From contig QPGO01000051.1 of the NCBI GenBank assembly GCA_008632985.1, positions 248,001 through 312,000 of the forward strand: a stretch of DNA of 64,000 nucleotides, in the 5' to 3' direction. The stretch's first letter is position 1; every line of letters begins with the position of its first letter. Made by a program: the position numbers and the translations under genes. This document shows, in pieces, positions 1,368 through 64,000 of the stretch. Source of the stretch: Psammoneis japonica. Its lineage: Eukaryota. The notes beneath the pieces are model-generated. The model was not told where the DNA came from, ran no database searches, and saw only the letters and a program-made list of their open reading frames with translations.

Positions 1368-1445
1368 CAAGTCGCAGTAGAACACATTTCTACCAAGGAC
1401 CATCAGATCGCGGGCATGTTCACAAAGCCATTGCCAAAGGATCAG
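1368..1445 (+). mobile_element. Ty1/Copia RNase H C-terminal remnant
   Basis: QVAVEHISTKDHQIAGMFTKPLPKDQ resembles the Copia pol terminal motif (QIADMFTKPL). Confidence 0.75.
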
Positions 1446-10420: not shown

Positions 10421-10530
10421 GAGAAAAGGGAATAAATCTACCGGTACGCATGTGATGAGAAAAAGGGAATCTAGCTACGCATGAGAAAAAGGGAATCTAC
10501 GCATGAGAAAAAAGGGAATCTCTACTCATG
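10421..10530 (+). repeat. Imperfect tandem repeat, 4 x GAGAAAAAGGGAATCT(..)ACGCAT
   Basis: Four units read directly, sitting at the left edge of a TpA-depleted block. Confidence 0.85.
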
Positions 10531-11740: not shown

Positions 11741-11920
11741 TGTCTAGCAGATTGAGGAAGAAAGTTTAAGATCATGCTGATCAAACGTGCGACTCCTCGT
11801 GATTGGTGGTTGGATCAATAGGATTCATCTTTGTCACTTTTGCTGTAATTGTGTAATCCCTCTTAGAGTATAATGCTTTGAAGTCACGTCAAAAATTTCT
11901 TAAAGTCTCTATCGTAGGCA

Positions 11921-24207: not shown

Positions 24208-24837
24208 TTAGCTAAGGTTTTCGATGATTCCCTTGCCGTTCACAAGCTCCTGGGCCATAAAGCCAGCAGCAGCAAGCATGGCAAGACGTCCGTGCTGAAG
24301 TTCCTTGGTGGCCATGATATCGAACTCTTCGGGGTCCTCCGGTTTGAGTCCCAAGGGGTCAAATCCAATGTCACCCGGGTAGTAGTCTTCCTTGAGGAGA
24401 CCAGGCTGGTCGACCGGGACATCAGCGGGGTCGACCCATCCAATCTCGGCACGCTGCTGTTCGGCGGCACCAATTCCGGTGATAAGCAAGGCCCAGAAGA
24501 GCGGAGGGACCTGAGCAAGGTGGGTGATGGCGGGTCCGCTGATTTGGGCATCAAAGAGGAAGGAGGATCCCTCCACCTTCTCTCCGACCAAGAATCCAAC
24601 AGCAGCAAGCATGGCCACACGTCCATGAGTGACCTCGGCTTCGCGGTAACGCTTGAGGGTGTTGGCGTCGGCCTTCTCAGCGAACCCGAGAGGATCGAAG
24701 AAACCAGCCGGGGGAAGAGCGCCAGGCATGTTGTCAATGGAGAAGGCATTGAGCGAAGTGGAGGACCTGGACACAGATGCAGGAGCAAAGGCGGCGGCGG
24801 AACCGGCAAGGGCGAGGACGGAGGCAGCGAACTTCAT
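24208..24837 (-). CDS. LHCX: Lhcx (LI818-like) fucoxanthin-chlorophyll protein, Lhcx1-like
   Basis: Presequence MKFAASVLALAGSAAAFAP; FFDPLGF, REAEVTHGRVAMLA, SFLFDAQISGPAITHL, GWVDP, KELQHGRLAMLA. Confidence 0.92.
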   Translation of the reverse strand: MKFAASVLALAGSAAAFAPASVSRSSTSLNAFSIDNMPGALPPAGFFDPLGFAEKADANTLKRYREAEVTHGRVAMLAAVGFLVGEKVEGSSFLFDAQISGPAITHLAQVPPLFWALLITGIGAAEQQRAEIGWVDPADVPVDQPGLLKEDYYPGDIGFDPLGLKPEDPEEFDIMATKELQHGRLAMLAAAGFMAQELVNGKGIIENLS

Positions 24838-31300: not shown

Positions 31301-31557
31301 AGAAAGACGTGTGGCACCCTTCATATGAAAGCACAACAGTACTCTCAACCTATACTTTGAAAATATATTCTGATTAAACGTGAAATGCGCAGTAAGACGA
31401 GGCAATGAACAGTGCTGAAATGCGAAAGGAAGAGGCTTGCTACCTGACTTGTTTGTAATGGTTACTATAAGGAGAGGGATCGGTCTCTCCAGCAAATGTA
31501 TGTTTGTTCTAAACCGAGGAATGGTCATCGCTTAGAATGCTCCACTTCTCCAGAACC

Positions 31558-32277
31558 CTAAGGAAACTGGACGGGGAGGGTAGACGGGTCGAAACGGTCA
31601 GTAGCGAGACCCAAGTTCACAAAGATTTCCTCCCCATTGACGAGCTCCTGTGCTACCATGCCGGCAATACCAAGCATGGCAAGACGGCCGTTCTGCAACT
31701 CCTTGGTAGACATCTCCAGGAATTCTTCGGGGTCCTCGGGTTTGAGCCCAAGAGGGTCAAAACCAACGTCACCAGGGTAGTAGTCTTCCTTGAGAGTTCT
31801 GCCAGTTCCCAAGACGTTGCCAGGATTCTCCCATCCTTCGATAGCTCGGTTGAACTCGAGACCTCCAATCACCAATGCCAGAAGCTCGAAGAAGAACGGC
31901 GATACTGCTCGAACCTCATCAAGGTGGCGGATCGCCGGGCCGATGTCTTTGTTCCAGGCTTCAAAGAGAGGGTGATACTCAATGGGCTCCTCCGTGACGA
32001 GCAAGCCGATGGCAGCCAACATGGCAACGCGGCCATGCTGCGTCTCAGCCTCGCGGTAGTTCTTCATCGTCTCGAGATCGCAATCGGTCGCAAAGCCAAA
32101 AGGATCAAAGTCCTCGACCGGAGGGAGGGAACCTGGGAGGCCCCAAGCGAACTTGCTTCCATCCGGCACCCATCCGTTGAGCTCCGCGTTGAGAGAAGTG
32201 GAAGACTTGGATACCGTGGAAGGGGCAAAGGCAGCGGCGGAACCGGCAAGGGCGAGGACGGAGGCAGCAAACTTCAT
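31558..32277 (-). CDS. LHCX: Second, divergent Lhcx-family light-harvesting protein
   Basis: Same presequence; FDPFGF, REAETQHGRVAMLA, GPAIRHL, YYPGDVGFDPLGLKP, KELQNGRLAML. Confidence 0.88.
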   Translation of the reverse strand: MKFAASVLALAGSAAAFAPSTVSKSSTSLNAELNGWVPDGSKFAWGLPGSLPPVEDFDPFGFATDCDLETMKNYREAETQHGRVAMLAAIGLLVTEEPIEYHPLFEAWNKDIGPAIRHLDEVRAVSPFFFELLALVIGGLEFNRAIEGWENPGNVLGTGRTLKEDYYPGDVGFDPLGLKPEDPEEFLEMSTKELQNGRLAMLGIAGMVAQELVNGEEIFVNLGLATDRFDPSTLPVQFP

Positions 32278-32380
32278 GGTGGGGAGAAAGATACGTTTCG
32301 CCTTGGAACACCAATCGAATTTGTGAATAGAGGATGCGGATTTTGCGAAGAGCAAAAGCGTTCTAAAGATATCGATGACG

Positions 32381-32395
32381 AACGTCACTGACGTT
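32381..32395. promoter_or_regulatory. Palindromic pair of TGACGT motifs upstream of the second Lhcx
   Basis: AACGTCA-C-TGACGTT, about 105 bp upstream of the ATG. Confidence 0.45.
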
Positions 32396-43258: not shown

Positions 43259-43329
43259 TGTTTTATGGGGTCTTTTGTTGTTATTGTTGATAAAAACTCA
43301 TTGGAACAAAACACAACGGCATGACGAGG

Positions 43330-44245
43330 AGCGAGGTGTGCAAGGTTTTGTGTCCTTTTGAAAAAGACCTTTCTCGCAGGCATGCTTGTTGGTTTGTCTG
43401 GATCAATGCTTGAGCTCCACAACTGGGGTCCTGCTCCTAAATCAAAATGCACAGCTACACTGATGTGCAACCGATGTGCCTTTGATGGTGTGATGTGTGA
43501 TGTGCCATGGCAGTTGCGGAATCAAAACAGTTGACATTGCTGTCATTCAGAGTTGTTGATCTCTCCCGACACACAGGGTGTGCACAGGCTTCACTCGTCA
43601 TCAAAGCCGCTGTCATTCTTTTTTGCACACACACAACAATGGGCACCAACGGCAGCTTGCTTTCAGAGCTGGCACACATTTTCTTGGCATCAGCAGTGCT
43701 GAAAATGCAGAGTCCAGTTACAAGCTCCTTTTGAGACTGTGCTGACATGGCTGCAAAGACCCACCAGTGCTTCTTGCACGTGGCCTGCCTCCTCTGCTGC
43801 ACGAATTGAGAGGCAGCAGAGAGCACTGGGGCTGTGCCCTGGTGGAAAAGGTGCAGCAAACAAAACATCACTGCAGGAAAAAGGAAAAAAGGTTCCTGTG
43901 TGCAGATCAGACAAGCAAGAAGGGCTCGTGGAAAAAGACAAGAAAAGAGGATTTTTTCAAGCAGGAAAGAGATGGTGGTGTGGAGGCCGGGGCTGGCCGG
44001 GAACCTTGTCAGAAAAGCAAGTGTGGCTGTGCTGTGCATGAGGGCTCTCTCTGCCCAGGCCACATTGTCAGTGTCATGCCAGCAAATGAATGTGTGCTGG
44101 GTTCCCCACGACAGTGGCATGTGCGCGGACATTGCGTTGTTGGAGAACAAGAGAGACAAAGAACAAGTGTGCGCTTTGTTTTCGCGCTTCTTTCTGCACC
44201 CTTGCACCACAGCACGCGCACTGTGCCCGCATCGTTTTCTCTTCG
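43330..44245. mobile_element. Degenerate TpA-depleted block next to the YR retrotransposon
   Basis: About three TA, all toward the MFS gene side; Cys/His-rich spurious ORFs. Confidence 0.5.
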
Positions 44246-44691
44246 GGATTCGATGATGTGAGATGCCGATCCGCATCCGACAAAAGTCCTAGACTGCCAG
44301 CCCAAGAACCACTGAGAAGAACCTTGGCATTGGAATGCTTGGGAGTCTCATGGAGTGGAGCTCTCGGCAACACTCTACTCCGCACAAGGGGGGTTGGGCA
44401 AAACCCACACCCTCCGCAGGGTCTCGAGTAAAACTCGAGGGCTCGTGATCAGGAACCTCTAGGATCTGCTCATGGCGCTTCCAGTCGAGACCAGTGGGAG
44501 GTGCCTCCGGCATTTCGCAACGTCGGAACCCCACACCAGATGAATCTCAGACTTGGAATCGAAGATGATGCCCGATGCTGTTCCTGTGACTTCGTAGCTG
44601 ATGCGTCGTCTAAAGCAGATCGTCAAGGAACCTGGTCCAGACTTTGCAGGTAGACTCCCGTGGTCCAACAGTGAAGTTGAGCGCAAAATCC
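44246..44691 (-). repeat. Split direct repeat B2
   Basis: ~445-bp copy of 44963-45407. Confidence 0.95.
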
Positions 44692-44710
44692 AGGGAGTGG
44701 TGGGTGGGTG

Positions 44711-44959
44711 CAAAAAATCGCTTTTCCAATGCTTTGGAATGATCCAGTCACGTTGATCAGGGTTCCTGTCTCAACAAAGATGGAAAAGTGAGAGCAACAA
44801 AACGCTGACAGGTTTGACCGGTCTCCGTGACCAGTCATCTTGGAGACCAGTCATCTTGGGCCAGAAGTGCCCGCTTCTGGAAGAGGCACAAGTCTTGGGA
44901 CATTTTCCGATGAAAGGTCTTGCATCGCACTGTTCGTCTCCATCTAAACTTGGGTGCGA
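44711..44959 (-). repeat. Split direct repeat A2
   Basis: Copy of 53531-53763 with a 16-bp internal duplication. Confidence 0.95.
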
Positions 44960-44962
44960 GGA

Positions 44963-45407
44963 GGATTCGATGATGTGAGATGCCGATCCGCATCCGACAA
45001 AAGTCCAGACTGCCAGCCCAAGAACCACTGAGAAGAACCTTGGCATTGGAATGCTTGGGAGTCTCATGGAGCAGAGCTCTCGGCAACACTCTGCTCCGCA
45101 CAAGGGGGGTTGGGCAAAACCCATGCCCTCCGCAGGGTCTCGAGCAAAACTCGAGGGCTCACGATCAGGAACCTCTAGGATCCACTCATGGCGCTTCCAG
45201 TTGAGACCAGTGGGAGGCACCTCCGGCATTTCGCAACGTCGGAACCCCATGCTAGATGAATCTCAGACTTGGAATCGAAGATGACGCCCGACGCTGTTCC
45301 TGTGACTTCACAGCTGATGCGTCGTCTAAAGCAGATCATCAAGGAACCTGGTCCAGACTTTACAGGCAGACTCCCGTGGTCTGACAGTAAAGTTGAGCGC
45401 AAAATCC
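44963..45407 (-). repeat. Split direct repeat B1
   Basis: Copy of 44246-44691. Confidence 0.95.
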
Positions 45408-45493
45408 CCCCCGATGAGAACTCCCAGGTGGTGGCCACCTGAAAAAAGAAATCTTGAGATCCAACGAAGAAGAGGCAGGTGGTGAAGCTTGTC

Positions 45494-47024
45494 TCACATT
45501 TCCTGTGTGCATCTCAGGAAAGAGGGAAGGAGGAGAGAGATGTTGGCACAGTGTTGCCTCATCTTGTGTGAGGGCCGAGCGGCCCCAGCTCGCTCCTTCC
45601 TTTTCCATTGATTCACTGCATCGATGTCGTCTTCCGACACACTCTGGGAAACAGCTCGCGAGTCAGACCCACGATGGAACGATCGGCTCACATCGCACTT
45701 CTCTTGATGTCGCCATGAGAAGTGATGTCGGCACCAAACAGAGCCGGGTGGTCGTTGAACAGTTCACCCAGAACAAGATGGAGAAGGGTGTTCAACTCCC
45801 AAGTGGTTGCAACCTTCCCTCCAGGGTCTGATGCAGCCGGCCCTCTAGCACGTCCTTTCGAAGCTTGCAAGGACACAACAGCTCGGGTCCATCCACGGAT
45901 CTGATGCCGGAACCTGTCACATTTACGCTTGGCAGAAGGTGCTGCCGCTCACCGTGTTCTCCCCCAACTCGTCGAGCAAAGGGATCACAACACACGAGTT
46001 GTGGAGTGGGAGGTGTTCCCGCAACGCCCCCAAATGATGAGCAATCCCTCTGGCCCACAAAGGGACAGGGTGAAGCTCACTGCAAAACAGAAGCCCCCGG
46101 CCAGAAACCCAAACCGATCCCCGGCGTTTGTGGCTTGAAGAAACTTGTCTTCAAGCCTTGGCAGCAGATGTTGCACAATTTGAACAGAAATTGCCCTGTC
46201 CGGCCTCCAATCCTGGCCCATTTGTCTCTTGCATCCAGTCACAAACCTTTGAAACCACAAGGAGGCACACGGGTCCTCGCATGTCTGAAGGTGTTGCTTG
46301 CCTTCAAGATCCGCCAACGCAAGGGCCCGAGAGTTGGCGGAGGCTGATGCCCTGACCTGGTTTGAGCAAGCTGTTCGAAGCTTCCTGACGGTGTCAAACT
46401 GGGAGTGCGAGCCTGAACAGTGACCGGGGGGTGTGATGCCAAGACTGTCTGCATTGCCACCTCATGTCCACAGTGATCATGCGGAGGCAAGGGGCCTGGT
46501 TCCAGATGAGGGCCATGAAGACCAAGACGATCCAACAGGGCCAATCCCTGAGCCACCTTGGACGCGTTGTTCTCCACAGTGGAACTTTCTCTGCTCCAGA
46601 ATGCACCCAAATTGATCTGCCTGATGCAAGCCAATGCCACCTCATCACGTGGAGAAGTCGGGATAGGGTCTCTGCGATGCAACTCATGAAAAATGCAAGT
46701 GTCGCACTTGAAAGCCACCATTGGATGGTCCCCAGCACGAGCTTGGAAGAACTTGTTCCTGTCCTGGGGCTTTCGAAACCAAATGTTGTCTTCAATTTGC
46801 GCCGCATCCTCACCTGGCTGGGCCCCGTCATCGTTTTGATGGTCGTCCGGGAGAATCCCGCCCAAGTGAAGGTGACGCTTGCGCTCGAAGCATGACACCC
46901 TGGACACCACGCTCTGCGACACGGAGGCCAACCTCGGACACTGTGCACAAAATTTGCGCAAAATGTCCCTCGCGTCCACTTCAGCCTCCTCCCACACTTT
47001 TGCAACGCCCGGTCCATGGAGCAC
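45494..47024 (-). pseudogene. Tyrosine recombinase of the retrotransposon (frameshifted, catalytic residues mutated)
   Basis: AFWSRESSTV; SLCGPEG (expected SLRGxE); SRSFHRGS...VNQW...MRQHC (expected RSxRRG...W...HY). Confidence 0.8.
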
Positions 47025-47063
47025 ATCTTTGGTGTCCCTCGGAGCTGCTGCGGACTGTGAGAG

Positions 47064-50061
47064 ATGAAGGGGAAAACAAGACCGATGAGCAAAGGTTCGA
47101 ACATTTCTTCAGGCCAGAACGCCCCAGCTCCCGCCGGCACCAGAAAGACGAGGTCCGCTGCCTCACACAATTGTTTCTGCCACTCCGGAGTCATTGGGTG
47201 CGGACAGACAAAAATGTGGAACGATTTCTGGCGCTTGAGGTGGGCAATGCAGAGTTCTTCGAGAGCCGTTCTAGCCGCGGCGGGCGGTGGGGCCCAGACC
47301 CAAGTGCCTGACCGGAACACTGGCATCTCAACCGCTTCGCAGGGCGGGCAGTGCCACTCAGATGTGTCGCGGCCCTTCTGGAACCAATCGACAGGAGAAA
47401 GGAGTTCGGCCGTCAGTGATCCCACCCAGGAATGGATCCAATCGAACAGCAGAGGTGCCCGCTCAGTCGCTGCCAAGTGCAAAGGAACAAACGAGAGCAT
47501 CTTGGCCCCATTCAAGACCCCTTCCACAAGATGCCTCGAAAACCCCATCTGTGCCTTGGGCTGTCATGCGTTTGCCCGAGACATGAACCAAGTGGAGAAT
47601 GAACCCGCACTTGGCCTCGAGCACCCGCAACCGTGTCACCTGCTCCAGGAGTTTCAGATTCGACGAGGTTTTTGTAGACTGCAATCTCTGAGACTGAGTT
47701 GTCAGTGAAAAAGCAGAGAGTGGTGCCATCCATTTCCCCCCGACTCAGCCAGCTCCTGGACTGCATCGATTGTGCTCGAAAGTTCCTTCCAATTTGAAGA
47801 ATTGGATTGATCATCGTCGCCCCAGATCCCAATCCGAAACACGATCGCCCCGTCCTTAGTCTGGACGGATGAACCAAGGCCCTTCCCAGACGCATCAGCG
47901 AATCCGCACAGGACCACCACAACCTTGGAGGAGCAGACAATTCCAGCAGCAGGCTCATCCGGTTCCACAATCCGTCGCAAAGCCCGCAAGTCAGAGAACA
48001 ACTGAGGCACTGCACGCACGGTCTCGGGGTGCTTGCCGTCCCGAAGGTTCTCACCAAGCTCACACGGATCAGCACTGAGCTTGTCGGCCTTGTGATGGAT
48101 CCATGCTGTGCACTCCTCATCTGACACAGCCCACCCATCCGCCTTTCGGTTTGGGCGCCAACTGTCCAGTGTCAGGTGAATCCCTTTGAGGAAGGGCATC
48201 AAAAAGGGGCAAGTCATGGCGGCATGGACAAGAAACCCACGCTTTCGTTCGAGGTCCTTAAAGTTGCACTCGGGAGGCCGAGTCATCCATTCCATCGCAT
48301 GACTTAGAAGGGACTCAATCATGCCCTTGCCCTTGTCCCACTTGGCCTGTGAAAGAGATTGGGTGACATTGCGGGCAAGCACGCGGAAAATGGCACCAGC
48401 CCAGGCACCCATCTCCTGCTGGGATGGGGGCTGAACTTTGCGCGGGGCGTTCTGGAGTCCAAGACACTGAAGCCTGGCAGCCATCTGATGTGCCACTTGC
48501 CACGCCTCTTCTTCACTGGCTCCCATGCCTGCAAGTCATCTGCGAAGGTTTTGATGTCTCCAGCGATGATCTTCAGGATGGAGTTCCATTTGATCATGAG
48601 TGGGTCTTGAACCTTGCAACTGGGATCCCCTGGGAGGTTAAAAAGAACTTTGTCAAAGCCCGCGGGGTTCCCCGGACGGCTGGGATCCCCTCGGGCCACT
48701 TCGTCAGCCCAATGATGCGTCTGCACCGCGTTGCAAGGGCTGGGCTTCATTCCCATAAACAGACGGTTCCAACGCTCCATGCCAACAGGAGATTCAGTCG
48801 GCAAGGGCCGTGGGAGGTGGTTGCGGAGCGGAGTGAGATCAACACCGGCAAAGGGTCGAATCCGTGGGTCCATGAAAAAATTGAGAAACATGTCCCCCAG
48901 ATCCAAATCAACAGAGAAAGTTGATTCGGTCATGCACCCTAACACCGACGCTGCAGTTGGAAGGAAGAAAGAAGGAGCCCAGAGAGCGTCGTTTAGACCG
49001 GATGAAGTGCCGTTGTGCACCATCCGGATGTCCTCGACTGCTTCCTCCATCCTCCCGTCAGACCTCGGGACCAAAGACACAGCCTCAGGGACCCAGAAAC
49101 AGTCTGCAAGACTCGAAACTGGAGCACGCTCAATGCATCCATGGTCCCGGACCTTCTGGATTTTGGTTGCCATGCGCTGCACTTCGTTTGCAGAGCCGCA
49201 AACCCGTTGCCACTTGCGGTTCCTGGGTGGCGTGCCTCTTGCGAAAATCGGAAGACCATCGCGTGCTCCCTGGCGTTGCTCAGGCGAGGGCCTGCGCCAG
49301 AAGAAAAGAGAAGAGCCCCGGCCCCAGCTCCACCAGGAACTTGGCAAAGTTTGAGTTAGAACGTCAGTGCCAAGATTCCCGTCCAACAGTGACGCTGGGA
49401 GTGGTGGGTCTCGATGCAAGCCCCCCTGATGACTCAACAGAGAGTCCCCAAACCATTGTCGCAAGCGCAGCAGCTGAGGAACCCATTCCCACCCGTGGCA
49501 TCGACTCATGTGCCCCAAGAACGAGCGAGTCAAACGGCGGTGCCACCACCAAAGAGCCATCACACGCAAAGCTGGAAGGACAGGCCCAAACATGGGAAAC
49601 AAAAGCGCAATCCGCTTGTCCCATGGACGAAAAGGCGGCAATGCCGAATCCCCTTTTGCCGCCTTGGCAGTGACAAGGGACAGGTTGATCCATTCGTGAG
49701 GCAAATGCCGACCAAGCCGAGGCAGCCAAGTGGCCACAGCCGGCTCAATGGCAGGTTCCGAAGGACCCAAAGATGGGTCGAGGACCGCCGGCCGGGTGCT
49801 GGTGGAGCGCTGCTCAATGACGTGGTCAATGACCGAGGCAAGTAGATTCAGTGGGATCAACTGACTCCACACCTCCCCAGAGAGCAAATCCATCATCTCC
49901 CTTGTCCGGAATCGAAGTGGGAAATCCCACGCAGCCAGGAGTTCGTCGTCACTCAACTCCCTGAGGATCCACCCCGCATGGGACCGGTGAGACTGATGTG
50001 ACACTGGCCGGTGAGTGACTTGTGGGCTCACACGATCGCCCTCCCTGTGACACACCCCCAA
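47064..50061 (-). pseudogene. Reverse transcriptase + RNase H + MT-like region of the retrotransposon
   Basis: DIRMVHNGT, DLDLGDMFLNF, MGMKPSPC, FADD; RNase H CGFADASG...SSNWKEL...FFTDN; WVWAPPP...FVCP...W segment. Confidence 0.85.
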
Positions 50062-50417
50062 AGGTTCTGAGGGGCACGGCTGTCCCGCCAGTTTGCAGTC
50101 AATGATGTGGCCAATCGTGCAACACAGGCCCCCCCTGAACTCTGGGAGAGAGCCCCCGACACAGAAAAGGGTCGTTCAAAAGGACGTGACGCCGCCAACC
50201 ACTGAATGGGGTGGGCCAACGTGACACAAGTGCTGAAGCCCTTTCAAGCCACGTCTTGACATCTTGCCGACCGGGGCCAAGTGCATCGGAACATTGCACT
50301 CCAATCGAGAGATCCTCTCCAAGCATGCCGGGTCCCCAGACACCAGTGCCACATCGCCAGCAGGCGCCAAATTGCCAATCCCTGAGAATGGCATGCGTTG
50401 AAGAGATGCACCCTTCT

Positions 50418-50813
50418 GGCGTGTTCCAGCTCTAGGTGGGACCTCGCACTGCTGAACTGTGACATGATTGTTTTTTGTCATCCGTCGCATGTTTCGCACG
50501 TGCATTTCTACGTGTTCTATCATAAAAAATTGTTCCACACTGCCTGTTTTGCGAAGCCAAAGGCTTTCTGTTGTCTGCACTCATGTCAACAAAAATGTGC
50601 TGGGTGTGTTCTTTAATGTCTAAAGAACATGCCCGGGCATGCTGTAAAGAATGTGCTTCAAGTGTGGAGGAGGAGATGCGTTCGCAAAATTGCCTCTTTT
50701 TCTGTTGGCGATCATTCATGCATGCATTGCTCAACAATTTTACTGCGGAGCTCGCACGTAGAATTCTGCGGGCCCAATGTCACAAAAAGTCCCACCCAGG
50801 ACTGGAACCCGTC
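50418..50813. mobile_element. MITE copy 2 nested in the retrotransposon
   Basis: ggcgtgttccagctctaggtgggac ... gtcccacccaggactggaacccgtc; flanks ttct/tcct; homologous to 28427-28816. Confidence 0.88.
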
Positions 50814-51037
50814 TCCTGACCCTCGCAGAGGTGGATGACAGCACACTCCAACAGGGTGGGAGGATCGTTCACACAACACAATGCGACACGAGGCCACTCA
50901 GATGGCCTTGACGCCAGGAGCCAAATGGGGGGGGCGGTGGAAATGATCAAGCAAGACCCATGGAACAAAAACAATTTGCGACCGCGGATGACAAGCCCCA
51001 CATTTTCGAACACAGGTGAGTCCACCCCCTCCGAGTT

Positions 51038-53215
51038 TCATTTCTTGGATTCTATCGCTTTCAGACACCCATTGACCTCTTTGAGTTCCGTTTTCAGTTT
51101 GTTCACCTCCTGGTGCGCCGTGTCAGCTCTGGCCTGTGCCGACTTGGCTTCGGTTCCAGCATTTTTTGCCTTTTCCGTCAGCATTGTCACTGCAGCTTGC
51201 AATGCAGTGACAGCTTCAAAGCCGGAGTTCGTAGCCAGAAATTTCACATGCTCCGATGCCATGGAGGGGTGGTCCCTGAAGTTGTGAGCTGTGTGCTCGG
51301 CCACAATGTCGTGAGACCGAAAAATTGCCCAAAGAATCTGGCTGCACACAGCATCCAGATCTGTCCCCTCGACAGACGTGAAGATGCCGGAGCGAACCTG
51401 ATTGAGATCATCGAAGATTCTGTGCACCAATTTCGAAGTCAAGGACCACGCCTGCTTTTGAGAGAACTTGCTCAGTTGCACCAGGTTCTTGCAAGTTTCA
51501 TCCACAAACTGAATCAAACCCCGAATAAATGCTGCTGACTTCGACAGGGCATCTCGAACCACCTGGCCTTCAAACGACCCCCCCGGGATTCGCTGAGCGA
51601 TGTCGTTCAAAATGTTTCGCTCGATCGTCCCAATTTTATCCATGATAAAATGCTTGGTCCCTGTTGAGCCAGTGGACCAGTGATCATGGGAGGCCATCTT
51701 GTCCAAGAACGACGGGTGAAGGCCCGCCGACTGCGCTCCTTTTGCCGAGCCCGAATCCAAAATTCTCGGCATGCCATGCTGAAAACTCGCCAGAGTCCTT
51801 GCATCCTCCTCCGTGCTGATCTTTGGGTCCATGCGCTTAGCCAGACCAGCCAAAAAATGGTGCAAAGCCGCTGGTTCCGTGCCCGCGATTCGATCCAACA
51901 ACAAATTTGCATCTGTAAGGCAGCCATGCACCCTGGAGGAAAAATGTTGTGCCACCCATGCTTGACATTCTCCAAAAGACGAGACACCGACCCCAGAGAA
52001 CTTGACAGCCGAAGTGTCTGACTTGGACTTCAACTCGTTCACCGCTTGGCTCAGATCCCGCATCTGTCGGTCCACGGAGCTCGAGCTTCCGACTCCTGTA
52101 AACCCCAATCCGCTGCCAGATCCAATCGCGCCTCCAAACGAGGCTCCCGCATTTTCAAGATTCTGAACTCTGCCAATCAACTGGTTGCAAACTTCAAGCA
52201 TGACTGTCCTCAGAGAGTCCATGTCACGCTCAGCTGCCAACCCAGAAATTTTGTTTTGCAAGTTCTGGATGGCGGCACTCACATTTGATGCCAGTCCATT
52301 GGAGCCGGCACGAACATTCGACTCCTGTGCCAAATCTACGGACAAGTCTCTGGGAGGGCACTCGGGTGAGCCGACTGTTGACAGACCAGCAAGTGTTCCC
52401 CAAATCGCAGGGGCTTCCACTTGCTGATCGAATTCCGGTGGAGGAGAACCGAGGGTTGCATCCAGCTGCTCCAACTTGCGGCTGAGGACGCTGACTGAGG
52501 AGTTCGATTCCTTGAAGTGCGCACATGCCTTGTTGCCCATCTCCACCACCGTGTTGCCGGTCTCCGTCAAGTTTCTTTCCAGGGACTGAACAACTCTAGC
52601 CAGGGCCGCAGGACTTTTGTTCGCGGCCAGAAATTGCGCCAGGGTGGTGGAAATCACCCGCTGGTGGGGTGTGAAGTGTCCGAAAAGTGCCCCAGGAAAT
52701 TCCTCGCTGCGGGGATCTTTGCCCTTCACCAGCGTCTTGTAAGCCGCAGCGACTTTGTGCTCCTTCAAAGACGCCCCACATTCTTCCTCCGTAGGACAGC
52801 GAGTGTCGCTGTTCCCGAGAGCCAGAAACTTCTGATGCCACCCTGCCAAAGTGTCGGTGTTCCCTTCCCACCTAACCAGCACCTCCGCCAAGACAAACGA
52901 GCCGTCCAAAGTGGGCTGGCAAAAAGCCGTGTCTGGTGTCTTGAGAATCGACACCATGCCGTCCGAAGGAATGACCTTCTTCGAGCCCTTGTGTTTCACC
53001 TTGCAATCCCCAGCTTTCTTGAAACAGAACGTGGCTCCACCCCCGACAACCCCAAGGCAACGGGAGTTGTCGGCACCTTCGATCCAGGTGACATGAAAAC
53101 GAGGTGCATCAGACGAAGGAGACGTGCCTTCCTCCATCGAGCCAGATGCACCTCGAGCCGCTCCCTCATCCTCCACTGCGAAAAAATCAACGCGGGGAGC
53201 GCCGTGATTTGACAT
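51038..53215 (-). CDS. ORF1 (gag-like, coiled-coil) of the YR retrotransposon
   Basis: Long open frame directly after A1; C-terminal coiled coil; only one Tyr in the 732-aa track ORF. Confidence 0.7.
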   Translation of the reverse strand: MSNHGAPRVDFFAVEDEGAARGASGSMEEGTSPSSDAPRFHVTWIEGADNSRCLGVVGGGATFCFKKAGDCKVKHKGSKKVIPSDGMVSILKTPDTAFCQPTLDGSFVLAEVLVRWEGNTDTLAGWHQKFLALGNSDTRCPTEEECGASLKEHKVAAAYKTLVKGKDPRSEEFPGALFGHFTPHQRVISTTLAQFLAANKSPAALARVVQSLERNLTETGNTVVEMGNKACAHFKESNSSVSVLSRKLEQLDATLGSPPPEFDQQVEAPAIWGTLAGLSTVGSPECPPRDLSVDLAQESNVRAGSNGLASNVSAAIQNLQNKISGLAAERDMDSLRTVMLEVCNQLIGRVQNLENAGASFGGAIGSGSGLGFTGVGSSSSVDRQMRDLSQAVNELKSKSDTSAVKFSGVGVSSFGECQAWVAQHFSSRVHGCLTDANLLLDRIAGTEPAALHHFLAGLAKRMDPKISTEEDARTLASFQHGMPRILDSGSAKGAQSAGLHPSFLDKMASHDHWSTGSTGTKHFIMDKIGTIERNILNDIAQRIPGGSFEGQVVRDALSKSAAFIRGLIQFVDETCKNLVQLSKFSQKQAWSLTSKLVHRIFDDLNQVRSGIFTSVEGTDLDAVCSQILWAIFRSHDIVAEHTAHNFRDHPSMASEHVKFLATNSGFEAVTALQAAVTMLTEKAKNAGTEAKSAQARADTAHQEVNKLKTELKEVNGCLKAIESKK

Positions 53216-53530
53216 GCTTTCTGCCCTCGAGAGCAAGGCATCGAATGCAGAATCTGGGTCAGGGGAAATGACTTCCCCAATTCCGCACGCTCAATGTCCG
53301 AATGTCCCATGTCGCCAGTCATTTCTTCAAGATTTGAGCCCCCAAGAGAGGGGCTCAAGCCTTCAACACCCCCCTGATGACCCACCGCAGAGGGTGGGGC
53401 CCGAGAAGCAGGCGACGCGGGAGACTGCACCAAAAAAGGAGAAATGACATTGGACTCTCACGTTGACGAAGGCACCATCATCGATGCCAGAGGAGAAGCA
53501 GTCGGACATGGTCGGGAGAGGGAGAGGGAG

Positions 53531-53763
53531 CAAAAAATCGCTTTTCCAATGCTTTGGAATGATCCAGTCAAGTTGATCAGGGTTCCTGTCTCAACAAAGA
53601 TGGAAAAGTGAGAGCAATAAAACGCCGATAGGTTTGACCGGTCTCCGTGACCAGTCATCTTGGGCCAGAAGTACCCGCTTCTGGAAGAGGCATAAGTCTT
53701 AGGACATTTTCCGATGAGAGGTCTTGCATCGCACGGTTCGTCTCCATCTAAACTTGGGTACGA
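53531..53763 (-). repeat. Split direct repeat A1 (5' end of the element; retains its TA dinucleotides)
   Basis: Copy of 44711-44959. Confidence 0.95.
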
Positions 53764-55795: not shown

Positions 55796-56928
55796 CTACT
55801 CAATGCTAGCATCGTAGTAGAAAAGAGGAAGATAAACCCATTGACCAATGCTGTTGGCTTCACAGATCATTGCCCCGTCGAGTTCATGGTCGCCCACCTG
55901 TGCTGGCATAGATGCAGCCGTTGCTGTTCTCCTCTGGCTGCTCAAGTTCTGAGCGCGTCGAAACCGAGCGAGTTCTGCCTGACATCGAGAGGCGTCCTTG
56001 GCCACCTGAACGAGAACTTCGCCAAGGACAGAGGGGTGCTGGAGCTTGATAGTGGCAACATCATCCACATTGACATTGTTCCAGTTTTCAACAAGCACTT
56101 GAATGCAGCGCTTCTGGAGGGAAGTCTGACTGGTGTGGCTTGGTTCAACGATTTTGCGTTCAGCATCCAACAGGCGAATGGCTGCATCTTGATGAACTTG
56201 TGGCAAGACACCTTGGGCTGTCAGGCCATTGAAACTGGCAGCGTCCATTTCAACGTTTTGAAACAATTCTGAAAGAAGACAACTCATGTGACGGCTCGAT
56301 TCTCTCCCCTGGGGCATTCCTCTCAGCAACAAAAGCCAAAAGTCCGGATCATTGACATGCACAATCCGAGAGGAGGTGTCAATGTCTAGAATGTTTTCCT
56401 TGAACATTCCGAGAGCAGCGTTCAATGCCTTTTCTTCATTCAAAGCCTTTGCATGTTCAATGCATGCACCGCATGTGTTGCTGCTGATGTCTTGAGTCCA
56501 GAACTTCTTGGTCTTCCAACGCAAATGTTGAATGCCAAAATGCTGAGAGAGGTGGCAAAGCGATGTGGCATTCTGAGTGTCAATGTCAAGAGCATCATCA
56601 GCAGCATGGATGTGATCCAACAAAGCAGGAAAGGCTTTCGCAGCAAGCTCTGGTGGCTCAATCTTGCTCGTCTGAGTTTGCTGTTCAGCAAACTCATTTT
56701 GAAAGAGCGAGCAGTGACAATCGCTCTTTCTTGCTCCCACGACAAGCACAATCTCATGCACATGGCAGTCCTTGCTTTTCAGTTCGTCGGACGAACAGTC
56801 CTTGCAGCTTGTCTGCACGCACCAGTCACTCAGACTCTGTTCCGGGTCAATCCTCCAGCTCAGTTCGGGGTGTTCTGGTTCTTGGTCAGAATCGAAAGCA
56901 TCCTGAACCGCGTCCGGGTCATTCGCAT
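55796..56928 (-). pseudogene. Diatom-type BTB/POZ-domain gene eroded by TpA mutation
   Basis: LSWRIDPEQSLSDW...CHVHEIVLVVG...AFPALLDHIH...LCHLSQHFGI; Tyr occurs only in the last 14 codons. Confidence 0.75.
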
Positions 56929-57006
56929 GCTGTTGTTTGCTGCGGCAACTGTCCCTTGAAGATCAACGAGACATTGCCACCAAAATGATCCACTCCAATC
57001 CGACCA

Positions 57007-60000
57007 TGGAAATGAGCTAGATGACAGCATGAGCTGGGGCAACAACCATCTAAAGCAGATGTGTGTCAACAGCGACCACTGTCAAAGAGATTCTGATCCT
57101 CGTGAAAGTCAAAATCCGCAAGAAGTGAGAGAGAGCTTCAAACCAAAAGTCTGAAGAGAGCAAAGAAGATGCCGGTTTGGCACTGGATTCCACGAGAAAG
57201 GAAGTGGATCGGACAACCCAGGAACCAAAAGGCCATCAATGGACCAAACCACTCAATGAGAAAAACCCAACAGTCCTCAATCAGACAAAGAAGCCAAACG
57301 CTCATGAAAGTCAAGACAGTGAAGTCCCATGCGAGACCTGCCAACTCCCGTGTGTGACCAACCCACGTCATAGATCAGAAACCGCAACTCTCGTTGCTTG
57401 CTCTCCCTCTCGAGAAGACGTCGACTGCAAGACGTCAGATCGCCATTGAAAAAAATTCAAACGAAGTTCGCACCAAAACACAACCCATCATGCAATGATG
57501 CGACACCACATGCAGAGATGTGACAACCCCAGTCATCACACCTGATTGCCATCACCCTTTTCATGTGCAACACATGCATTCAAACTTGAATCAACATGTG
57601 CACAAAGTGAGTCCACCAGCTGCCTGCCACCTCATCAACTTCTTCCGCAAATGCCAAACTTTTCCTGAACCAAACCCTTTGCAAAGATGTCTGCCAACTG
57701 TTCCTCACAAGCAATCTTTTGAATGTAAATCAAAGAGTCAGGCCTTGCAATGCGAGACACCTGAAGAAATGACACTTGACCGCGACATGCTTGGCACGAG
57801 AAGTCATCTTCGGCATCGTGGCCAGCGTCAAAGCACTGTTGTTGTCCTCAAAAATGGCAGAATGGAGCAACATTTCATCATCCCAATCAATGCTCATTGA
57901 AGAAGAAACTTCCTTGATGAGTCTTTTCATGGGCAGCAGGACTCTCATCACCTGAGACAAGAGGTGACATGCTCCACCTCGAGCACAGACAAAGCAATCT
58001 TGGTCTGCAGCTTGGAAGCCCATGTCAAGGGGTTGCTGCCAATGGTCAACAAGCAACCAGACCAACTCTTGACACACACACAGAATCCTGTGGGTCCTCA
58101 TGGTTCCAAAGCCCAGTGAAATCCATGTCACAACAACAATCCAACCTTGAGTCATCGAAGACGTCACAGCAAAAATGACACTGCGATCCTTTGTGCCTTG
58201 AAGATGCCTGGCAATCCACTTGGCAGCTTCCTCATGGCTCTTCTTGGGATTGTGCATGAACCCAACACAGCTGCAAACCACATTTTGAATGTTGGGCCTG
58301 GCACTGGAAGCCAGATGGAGCATCACACCAATGGCACTTGCACAGCTCCACGATTCAACTCGTTTGGATCCGTCGGCATCGGTGGCCAAAGGAGATGAGC
58401 TGGCAGGAGTCTTCTTGACATGACAATCCTCCACATTTGCAGCAGCAATGATCTTCTTGACAAGACCCTTTTGAGTGAGATGAGCAGTTCCAGCCTCATC
58501 ATCCCCATCATTGTCAACGCCAAGAAAGTCATTTGCATCGTCAGAAACATCAAGTTCATGACTGCTGGTCTTGAGCTCACTCACGATGTCATCGATTCTC
58601 ACAAGATCCTTCACAAAGAATGAACAATCATCAACATGTGCAAGGCAAACAACATCTTTGCCGATGAACAAACAAGGGTCGCTCTCACCAGAGTGCAATC
58701 CAACCTCTTCCAGACCCTTGGACAGGTGCTGGAACCATGCAGTCACTGCTTGGCGCAAGCCGCAAAGGCTCTTGTTTAGCTTCAGTGTGCAGTCTCCCTC
58801 ATGTTTCATCTCAAAGAGCTTGGGTGATTCAACACAAACACCCCTTCAAGAATGTCTGCCTGAGCAAAAGCGAGGGCATGATCCACTTGACGTGACACCA
58901 ATCCACACAGGTTCGACAGACTCATGAGCAATGAGCAACCACACTGAACCATGCTCTGCTGGACCACCGGAGCATCCGTCGGGGCATCTCTTGATTTTAA
59001 ATGCCCAAGTGCCAGTCAAAACATTGCATTTGATGGCGCCGACTCGCGCAGCACGGAGCAAATGAATTTTGTTGCGTTGGGTCATTGATTTCAGATTGCA
59101 TGGCCTTCTTGAACTCTTCTGCATGCACCCTGCCATTGCTTCATGATGTAAAGGGGGGCACCAGGATCGCGAGTCTTCTTGCTTGCAAAAGAATCCAACA
59201 GGCAGGGTGACAATGGACATGCTGAATTGACACCATCACCATCGAGATCAGCGAACATTGCACGCATCTTTGCAAATTCCACTGTTCTGCAACCAGACTT
59301 GAGCCAACAAGTTAAGTTGGAGATGAAAGAGGCCGCGCCTTTAAGAGCATGCCCATCACAACCATGGTGTTTGTCGGAACCTTCACAACCATGACAATCT
59401 GGAGGATGAATGGTTCTTCCAGAGCATGTCCAAACCGGAGTTGGGTCACTTGGAGCTTCTTGGAAATGGCCGTCATTGTTGACAATCAAAGGCATTTCTT
59501 GAGATCTTGGGATTCTTGAGTCTCCCTCTGGAGGCTCGGACACATCAGCTGGAGCCAAAGGAGACTCAATGCTCAGAGGAGCAACTTCGTCATGAATGAA
59601 ATTGGGAGAGGACAGAGAAAAAATGCCCCTGACAGATTAATTTTGACCCCTCACAGATCAGTCGTAAAATGGGAATCCACGACTAAAACAACATGCACCG
59701 CTTCGCCACTTCTGCATCCCAGAATTTAGAAAAACAGTTTTGCACGGTCAGGGTTGGGGTTTTGCATGGTCAGGGTTGGTTTTTGGGGTTTAGGTTGGGG
59801 GGCAGGGAGTGGGACTTTTGGCAAACTCCAGTTTGTGAATGAGCAAGATTCCACAAAAAAAGTCAATCTATGACAGGACCGAGCCAATCTGTGAGGAGTT
59901 GGCACCCAAGGACAGAAGACCTGGCAAAACATCTTCAGAACATGGAACACTTGACCATCTGGGAGTGGCAGAACATCCTTGGGAAGAAGACGGCACCCTT

Positions 60001-63000
60001 GGAGATCTGGGCATTCTTTCCCTCTGTTCCGTTGGTGCTGACCTGTGCTCATCGTTGCCTTCACAACTCTTCCTGTTGGCACGTTGATCACATGATTTCT
60101 CAGCAGCAAGCCAATCATCTGACAATGGAGGCAATTCTAAACCATCATCAGCATCCACATGATTTCTCAAAGCAGTGAAAAGATCCAGCCAGTTGCGTGG
60201 TGGCATCCGTTCATCATCCAAGTGAACCACCTCAAACCAATTGTCACAAACAACAACATGGAGTTGAGGCAACACAGAACCACTCTTGAGATTCTGCATT
60301 GAACCAATGTTGCTCGCATGGTCAGGCAAATGACCCACAAACTGTCCCCTGCAGCTTCAGGCTTTCCAATGAATCATTTTCTTGCCATCTTGCAATGTTG
60401 GATCCAACACGTGGGTCGGGCATCCCCAAACAGCCAAATTTGTGAGGGTTGATTTTGAAGAAACTTTCACTCCCATGAAGACTTCTTTGGGACATGATCT
60501 GTTGAAATCCATTTGTGGGGTCAAGTTCCATGAGTGGACAGAATGACTCATGGCCATGGGCCACAAATCCATCTCTGCTGCATCTGGCCATTGAACTGCT
60601 GCAGCATGAAACACCACAGATCTTGCACATGTTGCTTGCTTGGCAATGGCGTTCTGATGGTGCGCACCTTTCTCCTTGAGTTCCATGAGGAATTCTTTGC
60701 TCACAAAAATCCTGTCATCCAATTGACATGCTTGGACAGAGACACCAGCAGAAGCAGCCTCCCTCTTGAAACTGATTTTGCTCTTGACAGTCTCGAAGGC
60801 ACTGGACAAAACTTGATGATGAACTGACACCTTGCCAGATGCAGTGTCAACAAAAACAGTTCTGCCGCCACATTTGTCTGCCTCTTTGGTCTTCCCATGG
60901 GATTTGAACAGACGACCTTGAACAGAGGATGCACGCTGGCCTGCAGCAACAAGTTGTCCAGGATGAAGAATGTCAGTCTTGAGAGATTGATCCCAGCTGG
61001 GAACCTTTTCAGCCCACACAGCTCCGGTCAGACGAGGAGTCATTTGACCATGTTGACATGCAGCGCACTTGGGATTTTTGACAGCAGTGGAGCTGATGGT
61101 TCTTGCAGCATGCTGAACATTCAATGTGATCAAAGCCAAGATGACCAAGGCAAAAGTGCCACTGCAAAAGTCTCTTTTTTGCTTCTGAAACAAATTTTGG
61201 TTGAATTCATCCATCACACACACGTGTGGATGCATTTCTTCTGGTTCGCTGCTGAAAAAGGATTCCTTCCAATCGCAGCAGGGAGCCTGTCAGTTTCATG
61301 ACAAGGCACAGCAACAGTGCCACCGTCACACCAATGAAAGAAAGCGAGGTCCTTGGAGGTGTTGACATTGAGGAGCCTGCAGCCCAAGCTGCTGCCACAT
61401 TTGTCGTCCCCACAATGAGCAACACTCAACAACTTCACAGGAGAAGTCGGAATGCAAAAGCACTCTGTGCGGACATGTTGTTCACGTCCGGCATCATCAA
61501 ATGCCATCCATTCAACAACACCCACACCCTCTGACGACATCAACATGACCTCCAACATGAAGGAAGTGGCTCAGTTTGTCAAATGTTTGAAAGTTTCAAA
61601 GGTGCAAAGTCTTCCTTGTCAAAGGCAGAAGTTGCGTTGGCCCCAGAATTGAACAAGATCTTGAGTTGCTTGTCGTGAGGGGACAAAAAGGACATCGGAA
61701 GATGGCTGACTTGTTCCCTCAAATCAACATTCACAAAATGGTGCGCGAGCATGCACGATGCAACATTTGGAAGTTGGAAGGTCCGAATCATGGTTTGTGA
61801 TCTCGTGAATCGATTTGTCACAACAATGATGACAACACTTGAAATCAAAATCTGGCACTTGATCATGCAGATGCTTGATTTCTTGAAGAGTCATGTGACG
61901 TTTCTTGGAAGAGCTTGGCCACAGAGCTGGGTAAATCCCAACAAACATCAAAATGATCACCAACACATGAATCAATTGATGATGGAATGTTGAACAAAAT
62001 GTTGTCCGTTGAGCCTTCTGGAACAACTGTGGCTCAGTTGAGACTTCAGGATTGGGCAGCTCCTTCTTCTTGGGCATCTCCACATCATGTTGGACAAATC
62101 CTGGCATCCATTGGAATGCACATGGATGACATTTGCAGACTGCAAAGCAGAGCATCACAAAAGACCACATGGATGTCATGCTGCATGCCGACAAAATGCA
62201 CAAGGCTTCTGGATGCACTTCCAATGCCACTCGGATCTGAATCTTCTTTTGCATCAGTTTCCCTCTGATGATTGGTTTTAAATGGGACAGGACTCTTTGT
62301 GAATGACAAACCAACAATCCACTGGCCCATTGGTTCAACAAGTTGCACACCAAAGCACAGCCCATGAAGATCCGATTCGATGCACTCTGGGCCAAAGTGC
62401 ACTCTTGAGAGGCTTGGGCAGTGCCAGAACCTTGCACAGAAGCATCCCAAGATGTCATTGGCATTGGAAGTGCAACTCTTGGATTGGCTTTGAGCAGCAG
62501 CAGTGGCACTCTGAGTGTTTGCATCGGCAGCTCCCTCTGGAGCTGAATGATTGGCAGTTTCATGAGTGGCCCAGCACCCACATCTGCCACACCAATGCTT
62601 GGTCACACCATTGGAGACTCAAGCATGAGATTCTCCATGTCTCAGAGGAATCTCACAAGGATCCCTTTGAGTTCAAGCAGCCTGGCATGGCCAGCAATTG
62701 CAGCAATCGCCACGACCACAACCACCTCCACCCCAATCTCCATGACCACCACCACGTCCACCATGGCCTGGGTTTCCACATCCACTGCCACCACCTTGAC
62801 TGTTGTTGTTCCGGGGTTGAGGGCAGCTTGGATGGATGTGGCCTCATTGACCACAGTTGCAGCAAACACAATTGTCTGCGCAGTTTAGAGAAGTGGCAAA
62901 TCTGGACTTGCCTGCATTTGAAGAAGTTCATTCTTCACAATCATCCACCAAACTTGTGTGTGACTTGTTTGCATGCACAGTGAGATTGCCGTGCATGCAT

Positions 63001-64000
63001 CTCATCAAATCCACATCAACTTTGTTGAAAGAGAGTCACAAATTGAATCTAAAATGACTCGAGAACTGTTGATGTTGCAAGACCACTGCAAATGATCAAA
63101 GCAGCATCTTCGGGAAGCTTGTGATGGCCTTCTTGGCATCTGCACAATTCAACAACCTTTGCAGCACAGTTCTTGACATTCTCTCCTGGCTCTTCCTTGA
63201 GTTTCACAGCCTTGAGTTTGTCCACCACCATGCACAGAGCCCACTCAGTTGATGAATGCAACTTGTTGGCAGTGACAAGCTTGCAGACAACGGGCCCATG
63301 CGTGGGTCCACCAATGTGCTTCTGGGTGTCACCGTGTGGGGTGACAACCAACCAAGTTTAGAAAGAACTGTTTGGGCCAAAGCAAGTTTTGATGATCACA
63401 TTGGCCACCCATTGTGAGCGACTCTTGCAGATCCGACAAGCTGCAATCCATCACGAGATTCAACTCTTGAGGTGCCCCAGTCCTCGGGTCTCTCCTCTGG
63501 ATGCAGAGCGCGGAATCCGTGCCACTCATGAGAACACATTTGCCAACAGAGTTGGTCCAACTGATGAGAGTCACCTTGCAATCCTTGCCAGTGTCAATCT
63601 TTGACTCCAAGCCTTTGTGACAGCAAGAGACAATTGTTGTTGTGTGACAGAATGACATCGGACGTTGACATCTAGGTCCACAAGCCATGGCATGTGGACC
63701 AGTGATTCTCGGACCATCGGTCCAAGTGATGTGCCTCAAGAAGTGGAGAAGTGACCTTGAGATTGATCCCCAAACTTGGCACTTGAATCATCTGACGTGT
63801 CATTGTTGCCAAACAAACTGGCGTCATGCCGACAAGAGTGTTTCTTGATCCTCCAGAACAATCACTCATTTCGGAGAATCAGAGGTCTTGCTTCATGTCA
63901 ATTTGCAGACCAGTCAATTCAAAGCAATGACAACACTTGGGCTCACAACCACGGAAGTGAGCTAGATGACAGCATGAGCTGGGGCAACAACAACTGTCCA
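57007..64000 (-). mobile_element. Ty1/Copia (CoDi-like) LTR retrotransposon, degenerate; 5' LTR runs off the window
   Basis: Order gag, PR (61214-61558), IN (60357-61235, GAHHQN, WGCP..VLDP), RT/RH (57730-59220, SLCGLRQA, HVDD, KHVAVKCHFFR); LTR-end match 57003-57046 vs 63948-63991. Confidence 0.9.
63938..63950 (-). other. Primer-binding site, half-tRNA-iMet type (mutated)
   Basis: Minus strand GGTTGTGAGCCCA next to the LTR end; the Ty5/copia-type PBS is GGTTATG(A/G)GCCC. Confidence 0.65.

Follow-up and report, generated by a model that had tools for sequence, protein, structure and literature searches.

In a 64-kb stretch of the genome of Psammoneis japonica (contig QPGO01000051.1, positions 248,001 to 312,000; hereafter "the window", meaning the whole stretch that was analysed), TA dinucleotides have been converted to TG or CA in several blocks of repeated DNA, among them a Copia-type long terminal repeat (LTR) retrotransposon that runs past the window end. 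The signature is confined to repeat blocks, the conversions struck both strands after the copies had been duplicated, and the loss of TA depends on the flanking bases at positions +/-1 and +/-2. On balance, we think these changes were probably made by a post-integration mutator that turns A:T into G:C at TpA only, on both strands, by enzymatic deamination of adenine and with a footprint of about 6 bp. These conclusions are drawn from this one window, and the counts for strand choice are small.

The window was segmented with a two-state hidden Markov model (HMM) on TA density, using analyst-chosen settings (TA densities of 0.04 versus 0.003 per base, switch rate 1/2000). This gave six TA-depleted blocks (1-1377, 10524-11744, 25455-28441, 28801-31323, 43292-53617 and 55834-64000), which hold 104 TA in 26,601 bases, compared with 1490 TA in the undepleted remainder of 37,399 bases. 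Block by block, TA odds are 0.01-0.10 and TG/CA odds 1.3-1.9, while TA odds are 0.58 elsewhere. Counted per kb, the depleted blocks contain 0-9 TA (TA odds 0.01-0.14), with TG and CA raised to 1.3-2.0 and CG at 0.2-0.7, and the rest of the window shows TA odds of about 0.4-0.8 and CG odds of about 1.0. For the block that includes the Copia element (55834-64000), the odds are 0.05 for TA, 1.70 for TG, 1.64 for CA and 0.41 for CG (background TA 0.58, CG about 1.0). All six blocks have sharp borders, the intervening host genes show TA odds of 0.57-0.59, and loss is restricted to TA, with AT odds remaining at 0.7-1.1 in depleted DNA. CpG is also low across the depleted blocks (odds 0.35-0.67 versus about 1.0 outside), as expected if the elements were additionally subject to cytosine methylation. 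CpG decay in the blocks represents a second source of TG and CA, so that product counts are blurred and some discordant pairs are ambiguous.

The TA sites that survive are a biased sample of contexts. Counting by eye, the initial annotation had reported about 23 TA in the Copia element, about 17 of them YTAR, about 6 half-sites (RTAR or YTAY) and none RTAY (R, purine; Y, pyrimidine). A full tally of NTAN tetramers in positions 57007-64000 matched this count exactly, with 17 YTAR (CTAA 4, CTAG 3, TTAA 5, TTAG 5), 6 half-sites (GTAA 4, ATAG 1, CTAT 1) and 0 RTAY among 23 TA. The null for these class counts was the 37,399 HMM-undepleted bases of the window, mostly host-gene DNA, whose 1490 TA comprise 277 YTAR (19%), 756 half-sites (51%) and 457 RTAY (31%). 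Against this null, the Copia counts differed with a chi-square p of 1.3e-10, the YTAR excess had a binomial p of 1.2e-8, and the probability of finding no RTAY was 2.2e-4. Pooling the six depleted blocks gave 55 YTAR, 49 half-sites and 0 RTAY among the 104 TA (chi-square 87, p 1.3e-19), and the class bias was significant in each of three disjoint subsets of the depleted DNA. Because RTAY is enriched and not depleted in the background, the flank bias is no general habit of the genome. In a proxy-free test on copy pairs, the partner copy was converted at 3 of 10 YTAR sites and at 18 of 21 other TA sites (Fisher p 0.0038). The initial annotation had also stated that the bias is not absolute, some CTAG/TTAG sites being converted, and three such sites were found in copy pairs (28800 vs 50797, 45253 vs 44537 and 53700 vs 44896). 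Read on the plus strand, the surviving half-sites are skewed: RTAR 7 versus YTAY 1 in the Copia block (55834-64000), and RTAR 1 versus YTAY 6 in block 25455-28441. The composition of the coding strand, or a bias linked to transcription, may account for this skew.

Conversion of integrated DNA on both strands

The Copia element is identified by a terminal repeat (57003-57046 and 63948-63991, 95% identical over 44 bases) and by a Pfam RVT_2 match on the minus-strand open reading frame (ORF) 57730-58809 (E value 2.4e-13), and a tblastn search with 16 reverse transcriptase homologs aligned over 57733-59154. A protein search with ORF 60360-61289 returned one homolog. The reverse transcriptase/RNase H frame lacks tyrosine in all of its 359 amino acids, compared with a mean of 16 tyrosines in 12 homologs, and five tyrosine columns that are invariant in 12 of 12 homologs read Cys, His, Cys, His and His here, encoded by TGY or CAY codons. 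In the 750-amino-acid ORF of the second large hypermutated element (Table 1), a single tyrosine is found, whereas 19 homologs average 11 across 600 amino acids. Tyr to Cys and Tyr to His outcomes coexist within one reading frame, that is, both strands of the same DNA were hit.

Comparison of copies leads to the same picture. In eight paralogous pairs within the window, one copy has TA where its partner reads TG or CA at 21 sites, and another 13 sites are discordant for TG versus CA. Repeats within one integrated element carry independent, opposite conversions of the same ancestral dinucleotide. These opposite outcomes, together with Cys and His in one frame, rule out both native avoidance of TA and an RNA route confined to one strand: the depletion is mutational, occurred at the DNA level, affected both strands and followed the duplication of the copies. 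In one of the comparisons, the unmutated island at 28442-28800 provided an ancestral-like reference for the mutated copy at 50412-50813.

Copy number was assessed with the contigs of one public run from one sample, which may be the assembly's own sample and is hence not independent of it. The region from 45.5 to 64 kb is highly repeated, with 3727 contigs at least 80% alike and a summed depth of 140-560 versus about 54 for single-copy DNA. Differences among the contigs are dominated by transitions (A>G 423, T>C 373, C>T 409, G>A 421; each transversion 54-79), and contigs discordant for TG versus CA were seen, for example, at 46176/7, 51533/4 and 53205/6 (among the 40 listed of 2157 differences). 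The depleted sequence itself is reproduced by run contigs at a depth of about 54, with 1-7 differences per 600-940 bases. Across the stretch nested in the Copia element, public-run contigs connect 59609 to 59915, with 5 different letters in between.

By summed depth, most blocks are multi-copy, and the depleted DNA at 55834-56605 is near single-copy (58-78). This part belongs to the flank of the Copia element that carries a frame with a BTB domain, over which contig depth was 58-78, near the single-copy value of about 54. Depletion of this flank at near single-copy depth suggests that the mutator may not need repeats, or may spread from the adjacent element. The BTB frame (55799-56962, minus strand) is TA-depleted from 55834 and retains tyrosine solely in its last residues, outside the block; by eye, its usual Y-I-Y stretch reads H-I-H.

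Stop-to-stop frames of at least 90 amino acids number 129 in the 26.6 kb of depleted DNA, versus 101 in the 37.4 kb of background. Pfam searches on 19 further frames from the depleted blocks gave 0 matches, whereas the reverse transcriptase (RVT_2) and BTB frames did match. Conversion of TpA creates no stop codons and erases tyrosine, so that long open frames persist in dead elements and are missed by Pfam.

Flank preference, strand choice and candidate mechanisms

Survival rates were calculated with the undepleted DNA as a stand-in for the ancestral TA contexts of the elements. When NTAN tetramers of depleted and undepleted DNA were compared and fitted with a context model, as the initial annotation had proposed, survival proved non-uniform across contexts, amounting to 0.28 for YTAR, 0.091 for half-sites and 0 for RTAY (95% bound 0.009, with about 325 TA expected in the absence of depletion). 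The flank preference is thus graded, with far greater loss at RTAY than at half-sites, and greater loss at half-sites than at YTAR. Reading each TA as two half-sites, one per strand, a purine follows the adenine (+1) in 77% of survivor half-sites versus 44% of background (chi-square 85.7), and A occupies position +2 in 56% versus 27% (chi-square 87), while position +3 had no effect (p 0.65). In a Poisson model, the likelihood ratio was 96 for +1 (p 9e-21), to which +2 added 74 (p 7e-16). Per-strand loss by the +1,+2 bases ranged from -0.17 to 0.82 for RR (AA and GA about zero), 1.13 to 2.73 for RY, 1.42 to 1.83 for YR (with the TA pair omitted) and 2.05 to 3.02 for YY. Single values were 1.67 for CG, 3.02 for CC and 2.15 for CT; a C at +1 gave 1.91 and a T 2.31, and at +2 the order was T > C > G > A. 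The same order of loss was obtained inside the blocks when TA was normalised to TA+TG+CA with identical flanks.

How the two half-sites of a TA combine is informative on the size of the recognised site. Survival was 0.74 for TARA+TARA, 0.32 for TARA+TAR-other (TA, then a purine, then any base but A), 0.23 for TARA+TAY, 0.11 for TAR-other+TAR-other, 0.027 for TAR-other+TAY and 0 for TAY+TAY. At least one TARA half-site is present in 84 of the 104 survivors (81%), versus 26% of background TA, and the pattern was unchanged when two nested insertions were removed (89 TA remain). With seven parameters each, a multiplicative flank model fitted better than an additive one (negative log-likelihood 33.35 vs 52.69). 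The additive model predicted 9.4 RTAY survivors (probability of none 8e-5) and the multiplicative model 2.4, compared with 0 observed, and uneven exposure between blocks would act opposite to the observed synergy. Multiplying flanks indicate a footprint of about 6 bp, with an optimum near RRTAYY and TYTARA as refractory sequence, and not a trinucleotide.

From the YTAR survivors, the initial annotation had concluded that the preferred substrate is the A in TAY. YTAR is also the sole context without a purine 5' of T on either strand, so the survivors cannot separate a +1 pyrimidine from a -2 purine. Direction of conversion was therefore read from the products. At half-sites in copy pairs, RTAR became CA in 6 cases and YTAY became TG in 5, versus RTAR to TG in 2 and YTAY to CA in 1, which is 11:3 toward TAY (p 0.029). 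With conserved tyrosine codons added, strand choice was 15:6 (p 0.039), or 15:4 (p 0.0096) when columns with fewer than 3 homologs are dropped, toward the adenine with a 3' pyrimidine. Using the full +1/+2 contexts of 37 directional events, a model with 3' preference reached a log-likelihood of -32.0 and its mirror image -49.2, and 12 of 18 strongly polarised events agreed with the 3' model. Ile to Met versus Ile to Thr changes at conserved Ile columns provided 1 informative codon. The 3' reading is modestly favoured over the 5' reading, with a strand bias of about 2-3 to 1 that is no absolute rule. What holds of the TAY proposal is the association of 3' pyrimidines with loss and the 15:6 direction; it falls short in that the +2 base equals the +1 base in weight, the flanks are synergistic, strand choice is weak and the survivors alone are ambiguous.

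We propose that the mutator would act on integrated transposon-derived DNA, on both strands and at TpA only, and would have eliminated TA to about 95-99%. Chemically, the likeliest route would be an enzyme that deaminates adenine in DNA, leaving hypoxanthine that is subsequently read as G. To our knowledge, no natural enzyme is established as a genome-reshaping DNA adenine deaminase; the adenine base editors in current use are evolved derivatives of TadA, which acts on RNA. Loss would be fastest at RRTAYY (core RTAY) and near nil where each strand reads TA-R-A (TYTARA), and at half-sites the adenine before pyrimidines would be struck about 2-3 times more than its partner on the other strand. 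A plausible physical basis would be easy flipping-out of an adenine stacked between pyrimidines, as opposed to one that precedes a purine-adenine stack. We infer that adenine, not thymine, is the modified base, that a deaminase is the agent and that genome defence is its role.

Several observations weigh against this proposal. The sequence is equally compatible with A or T as the attacked base. Conserved tyrosine codons preceded by a pyrimidine (YTAY) gave Cys 4 and His 3, which is not significant alone (4:1 after dropping columns with fewer than 3 homologs; for two of the three His, the column is backed by one homolog). An unbiased strand model (-25.65) outperformed the 3' model (-32.0) for the 37 directional events, so that much of the flank effect may belong to the duplex site and not to one strand. 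Similarly, a tetramer product test, (RCAR+YTGY)/(RTGR+YCAY), revealed no significant excess (1.28 in depleted DNA overall and 1.11 for the Copia block, vs 1.21 in background), a test that is confounded by CpG decay and ancestral composition. Finally, the rates rely on a host-gene proxy for the ancestral contexts of the elements, and the flanking bases themselves may have mutated.

Two of the alternatives share the DNA level with the deamination proposal. In a two-step process at the duplex level, a near-palindromic site of about RRTAYY would be recognised, for example through a methyltransferase-like adenine mark in RTAY on both strands, followed by deamination or misrepair with essentially random choice of strand. 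The palindromic optimum, the multiplicative flanks and the 0 RTAY seen versus 9.4 expected from independent strands agree with such a process, as do the best fit of the unbiased strand model and a product test without strand bias. We nevertheless regard it as doubtful, given that copy pairs favour the strand carrying the 3' pyrimidine by 11:3 (p 0.029) and that half-sites and YTAR were still largely lost (survival 0.09 and 0.28), which is a graded, deaminase-type preference and not a strict site. Thymine chemistry, in which the T of R-T-A is modified (for example by hydroxylation or another derivatisation), mispairs with G and changes to C, appearing as A-to-G in TAY on the other strand, would fit every class, copy-pair and loss count equally well and is equivalent in terms of sequence; modified thymines in some protists favour TpA. 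No result here favours it, and adenine deamination is what the main text of the published case in the alga Bigelowiella natans proposes, as a hypothesis only; we consider thymine chemistry unlikely.

Of the two remaining alternatives, one involves RNA and the other no mutation at all. Editing of transposon transcripts from A to I by an ADAR- or ADAT-like enzyme, fixed through reverse transcription and reintegration, would suit a Copia element, which replicates through RNA, and U at -1 is common to known RNA editors in the literature covered. In contrast to what this route requires, both strands are affected in a single coding frame (Cys as well as His in place of Tyr), conversions are independent between repeats of one integrated element, the near single-copy BTB fragment and a small non-autonomous element are also affected, and +1 purines protect, which is the opposite of ADAR and fungal editing as described in the part of the literature considered. 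We rate RNA editing as highly improbable. Still less credible is a reading without any mutation, in which the blocks would be foreign DNA that natively avoids TA, or an artefact of sequencing or assembly. Extreme dinucleotide bias can be native to some viruses, and base modifications can cause systematic miscalls on some platforms. However, a protein cannot natively lose all tyrosines at invariant positions, the copies differ at exactly the TA versus TG/CA sites, and run contigs (depth about 54) reproduce the depleted sequence, though the run is possibly from the same sample as the assembly. Native TA avoidance, RNA-level editing and artefact were accordingly rejected on the basis of tyrosine loss, both-strand outcomes and copy differences.

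Other elements and host genes in the window

The positions of the blocks, elements and frames are given in Table 1. Among them, the 750-amino-acid frame has 885 relatives at an E value of 0.001 or better, many of them about 750 amino acids long; searches gave no Pfam match on five members of the family and no PDB or Atlas match for P0141. The last roughly 150 bases of the element that contains this frame (53618-53763) retain TA, including two GTAC, and an internal repeat copy at 44798-44955 has lost them; this edge was spared by the mutator. Pfam searches on the frames of the repeat block at 25455-31323 gave no match.

Table 1 Positions of TA-depleted blocks, elements and frames in the window
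Feature	Position	Strand	Details
TA-depleted block at window start	1-1377		HMM; 1 TA, a YTAR
Short TA-depleted block	10524-11744		HMM; 4 TA (3 YTAR, 1 RTAR)
Hypermutated repeat block	25455-31323		21 TA; interrupted by the unmutated island 28442-28800
Unmutated island	28442-28800		26 TA; TA odds 0.87, CG odds 1.53; copy of an element of about 400 bp (28429-28816)
Second large hypermutated element	43292-53617	-	52 TA in 10.3 kb; TA odds 0.10; internal and terminal repeats
Partly mutated copy of the roughly 400-bp element	50412-50813		Nested in the 43-53 kb element; 7 TA to TG/CA differences from the island
750-aa frame, unnamed family	51041-53290	-	Within the 43-53 kb element
TA-depleted Copia flank	55834-57002	-	HMM block; BTB-domain frame 55799-56962 (BTB E value 8.9e-6)
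Copia-type LTR retrotransposon	57003-64000	-	Hypermutated; 23 TA in about 7 kb; runs past window end
Reverse transcriptase/RNase H frame	57730-58809	-	0 Tyr; YVDD reads HVDD
Nested stretch in Copia	59609-59915		6 of the 23 surviving TA (4 YTAR, 2 half-sites); other copies lack the stretch

The element of about 400 bp is present in very high copy number, with a summed contig depth of 92,158 over 50436-51052, and a contig joint that skips 400 bases at 50412-50813 represents other copies of the host element without the insertion. Its copy at 28.4 kb is unmutated inside a mutated block and the copy at 50.4 kb is partly mutated, which suggests a mutator that is episodic and not constant at a locus.

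Host genes with long uninterrupted frames lie between the blocks and encode an M13 peptidase, an ABC1 kinase, an ABC transporter, a class-C receptor, ankyrin repeats and a chlorophyll-binding protein, the last of which is 73-81% identical to diatom proteins, including those of Pseudictyota and Seminavis and, most likely, of Proboscia, Nitzschia and a Thalassiosira-type genus. One more match may come from Kryptoperidinium, a dinoflagellate with a diatom endosymbiont. On these grounds the host was taken to be a diatom or a near relative of diatoms, and not Bigelowiella. Two related light-harvesting gene copies of the fucoxanthin-chlorophyll type (24211-24837, minus strand, and 31513-32388) flank the block at 25455-31323, and their repeats (24217-24396/31615-31794 and 24746-24838/32186-32278) are 77-87% alike.

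Comparison with known systems

So far, a TpA signature of this kind has been described once, in a 2026 preprint on the rhizarian alga B. natans (bioRxiv 10.64898/2026.01.13.699255). According to its main text, 231 of 302 de novo nuclear mutations fell in two integrated viral regions, all but one of the viral-region mutations were A>G or T>C at TpA, and the rate of TpA to TpG/CpA in integrated viral DNA was about 6e-7 per site per generation (bioRxiv 10.64898/2026.01.13.699255). The same text describes TpA-depleted, CpA- and TpG-enriched clusters with reverse transcriptase and DDE domains, and its authors (Mettrop et al.) propose an ADAT2-like A-deaminase as a hypothesis (bioRxiv 10.64898/2026.01.13.699255). 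The words "context", "trinucleotide" and "flanking" are absent from this main text, and figure 2B or Table S2 may contain a flank analysis (bioRxiv 10.64898/2026.01.13.699255). Both cases share the change of TpA to TpG/CpA only, its restriction to mobile or foreign blocks and the involvement of reverse transcriptase frames. In contrast, the host here is diatom-like, TA odds are 0.01-0.10 versus a Rho of 0.45 for the B. natans viral region, and the flank preference found here is not described in the main text of the preprint. Our literature searches did not find the signature in diatoms, nor a natural DNA adenine deaminase that serves as genome defence. What is new is thus a second lineage for TpA hypermutation and a flank rule that is absent from the preprint's main text; that conversion comes close to saturation in LTR retrotransposons of a diatom-like genome suggests a defence system of broader distribution. 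As a fingerprint, the flank rule (+/-1, +/-2, synergy, immunity of TARA) is suited to the screening of candidate enzymes in vitro and to a second look at published de novo mutations.

Fungal repeat-induced point mutation (RIP) changes C to T at CpA, thereby creating TpA and stop codons. As in RIP, the decay seen here is a DNA-level, transition-only and dinucleotide-specific decay of repeats in sharply bounded blocks. Unlike in RIP, TpA is destroyed, CpA and TpG are gained, no stops are made and a near single-copy stretch is affected. APOBEC3, which edits retroelements, and the DddA-type double-stranded DNA deaminase toxins resemble the present case in that they hypermutate DNA by deamination and follow a brief 5' context (TC or CC). 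Both deaminate cytosine, however, and APOBEC3 marks one cDNA strand only.

Among adenine deaminases, TadA acts naturally on an RNA hairpin loop. The part of the literature considered here gives UACG as the TadA motif, describes ADAR as disfavouring G at -1 and favouring G/A at +1, and assigns U at -1 and A/G at +1 to fungal RNA editing (PMC10027721). Amphioxus ADAT2, the one eukaryotic ADAT2 with demonstrated deamination of A in DNA, prefers GAA in the portion of the source considered (PMC10354150). The T at -1 seen here is common to TadA, fungal editing and ADAR as described there, and C at +1 is shared with TadA only. The likeness to TadA suggested initially is borne out in these two features and breaks down beyond them, as T and C perform equally well at +1 and there is no preference for G at +2 (CG 1.67, CC 3.02, CT 2.15), in contrast to the reported UACG. 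As in ADAR hyperediting, A-to-G changes are clustered in repeats and G is disfavoured at -1. Unlike with ADAR, for which G/A is reported to be enriched at +1, purines at +1 protect, and the changes occur on DNA, on both strands and after integration, in line with the initial view that the pattern is more TadA-like than ADAR-like. The T at -1 also departs from the G at -1 in the GAA reported for amphioxus ADAT2, a further point against the deamination proposal.

On this comparison, the signature would be grouped with a process of the B. natans type and not with any enzyme family. It is possible, and we suggest it tentatively, that diatoms, like B. natans, possess a double-stranded DNA adenine mutator of TpA with a near-palindromic footprint of about 6 bp that serves as a RIP-like defence against transposons and other invading DNA, and that both belong to a deaminase system widespread among stramenopiles, alveolates and Rhizaria.

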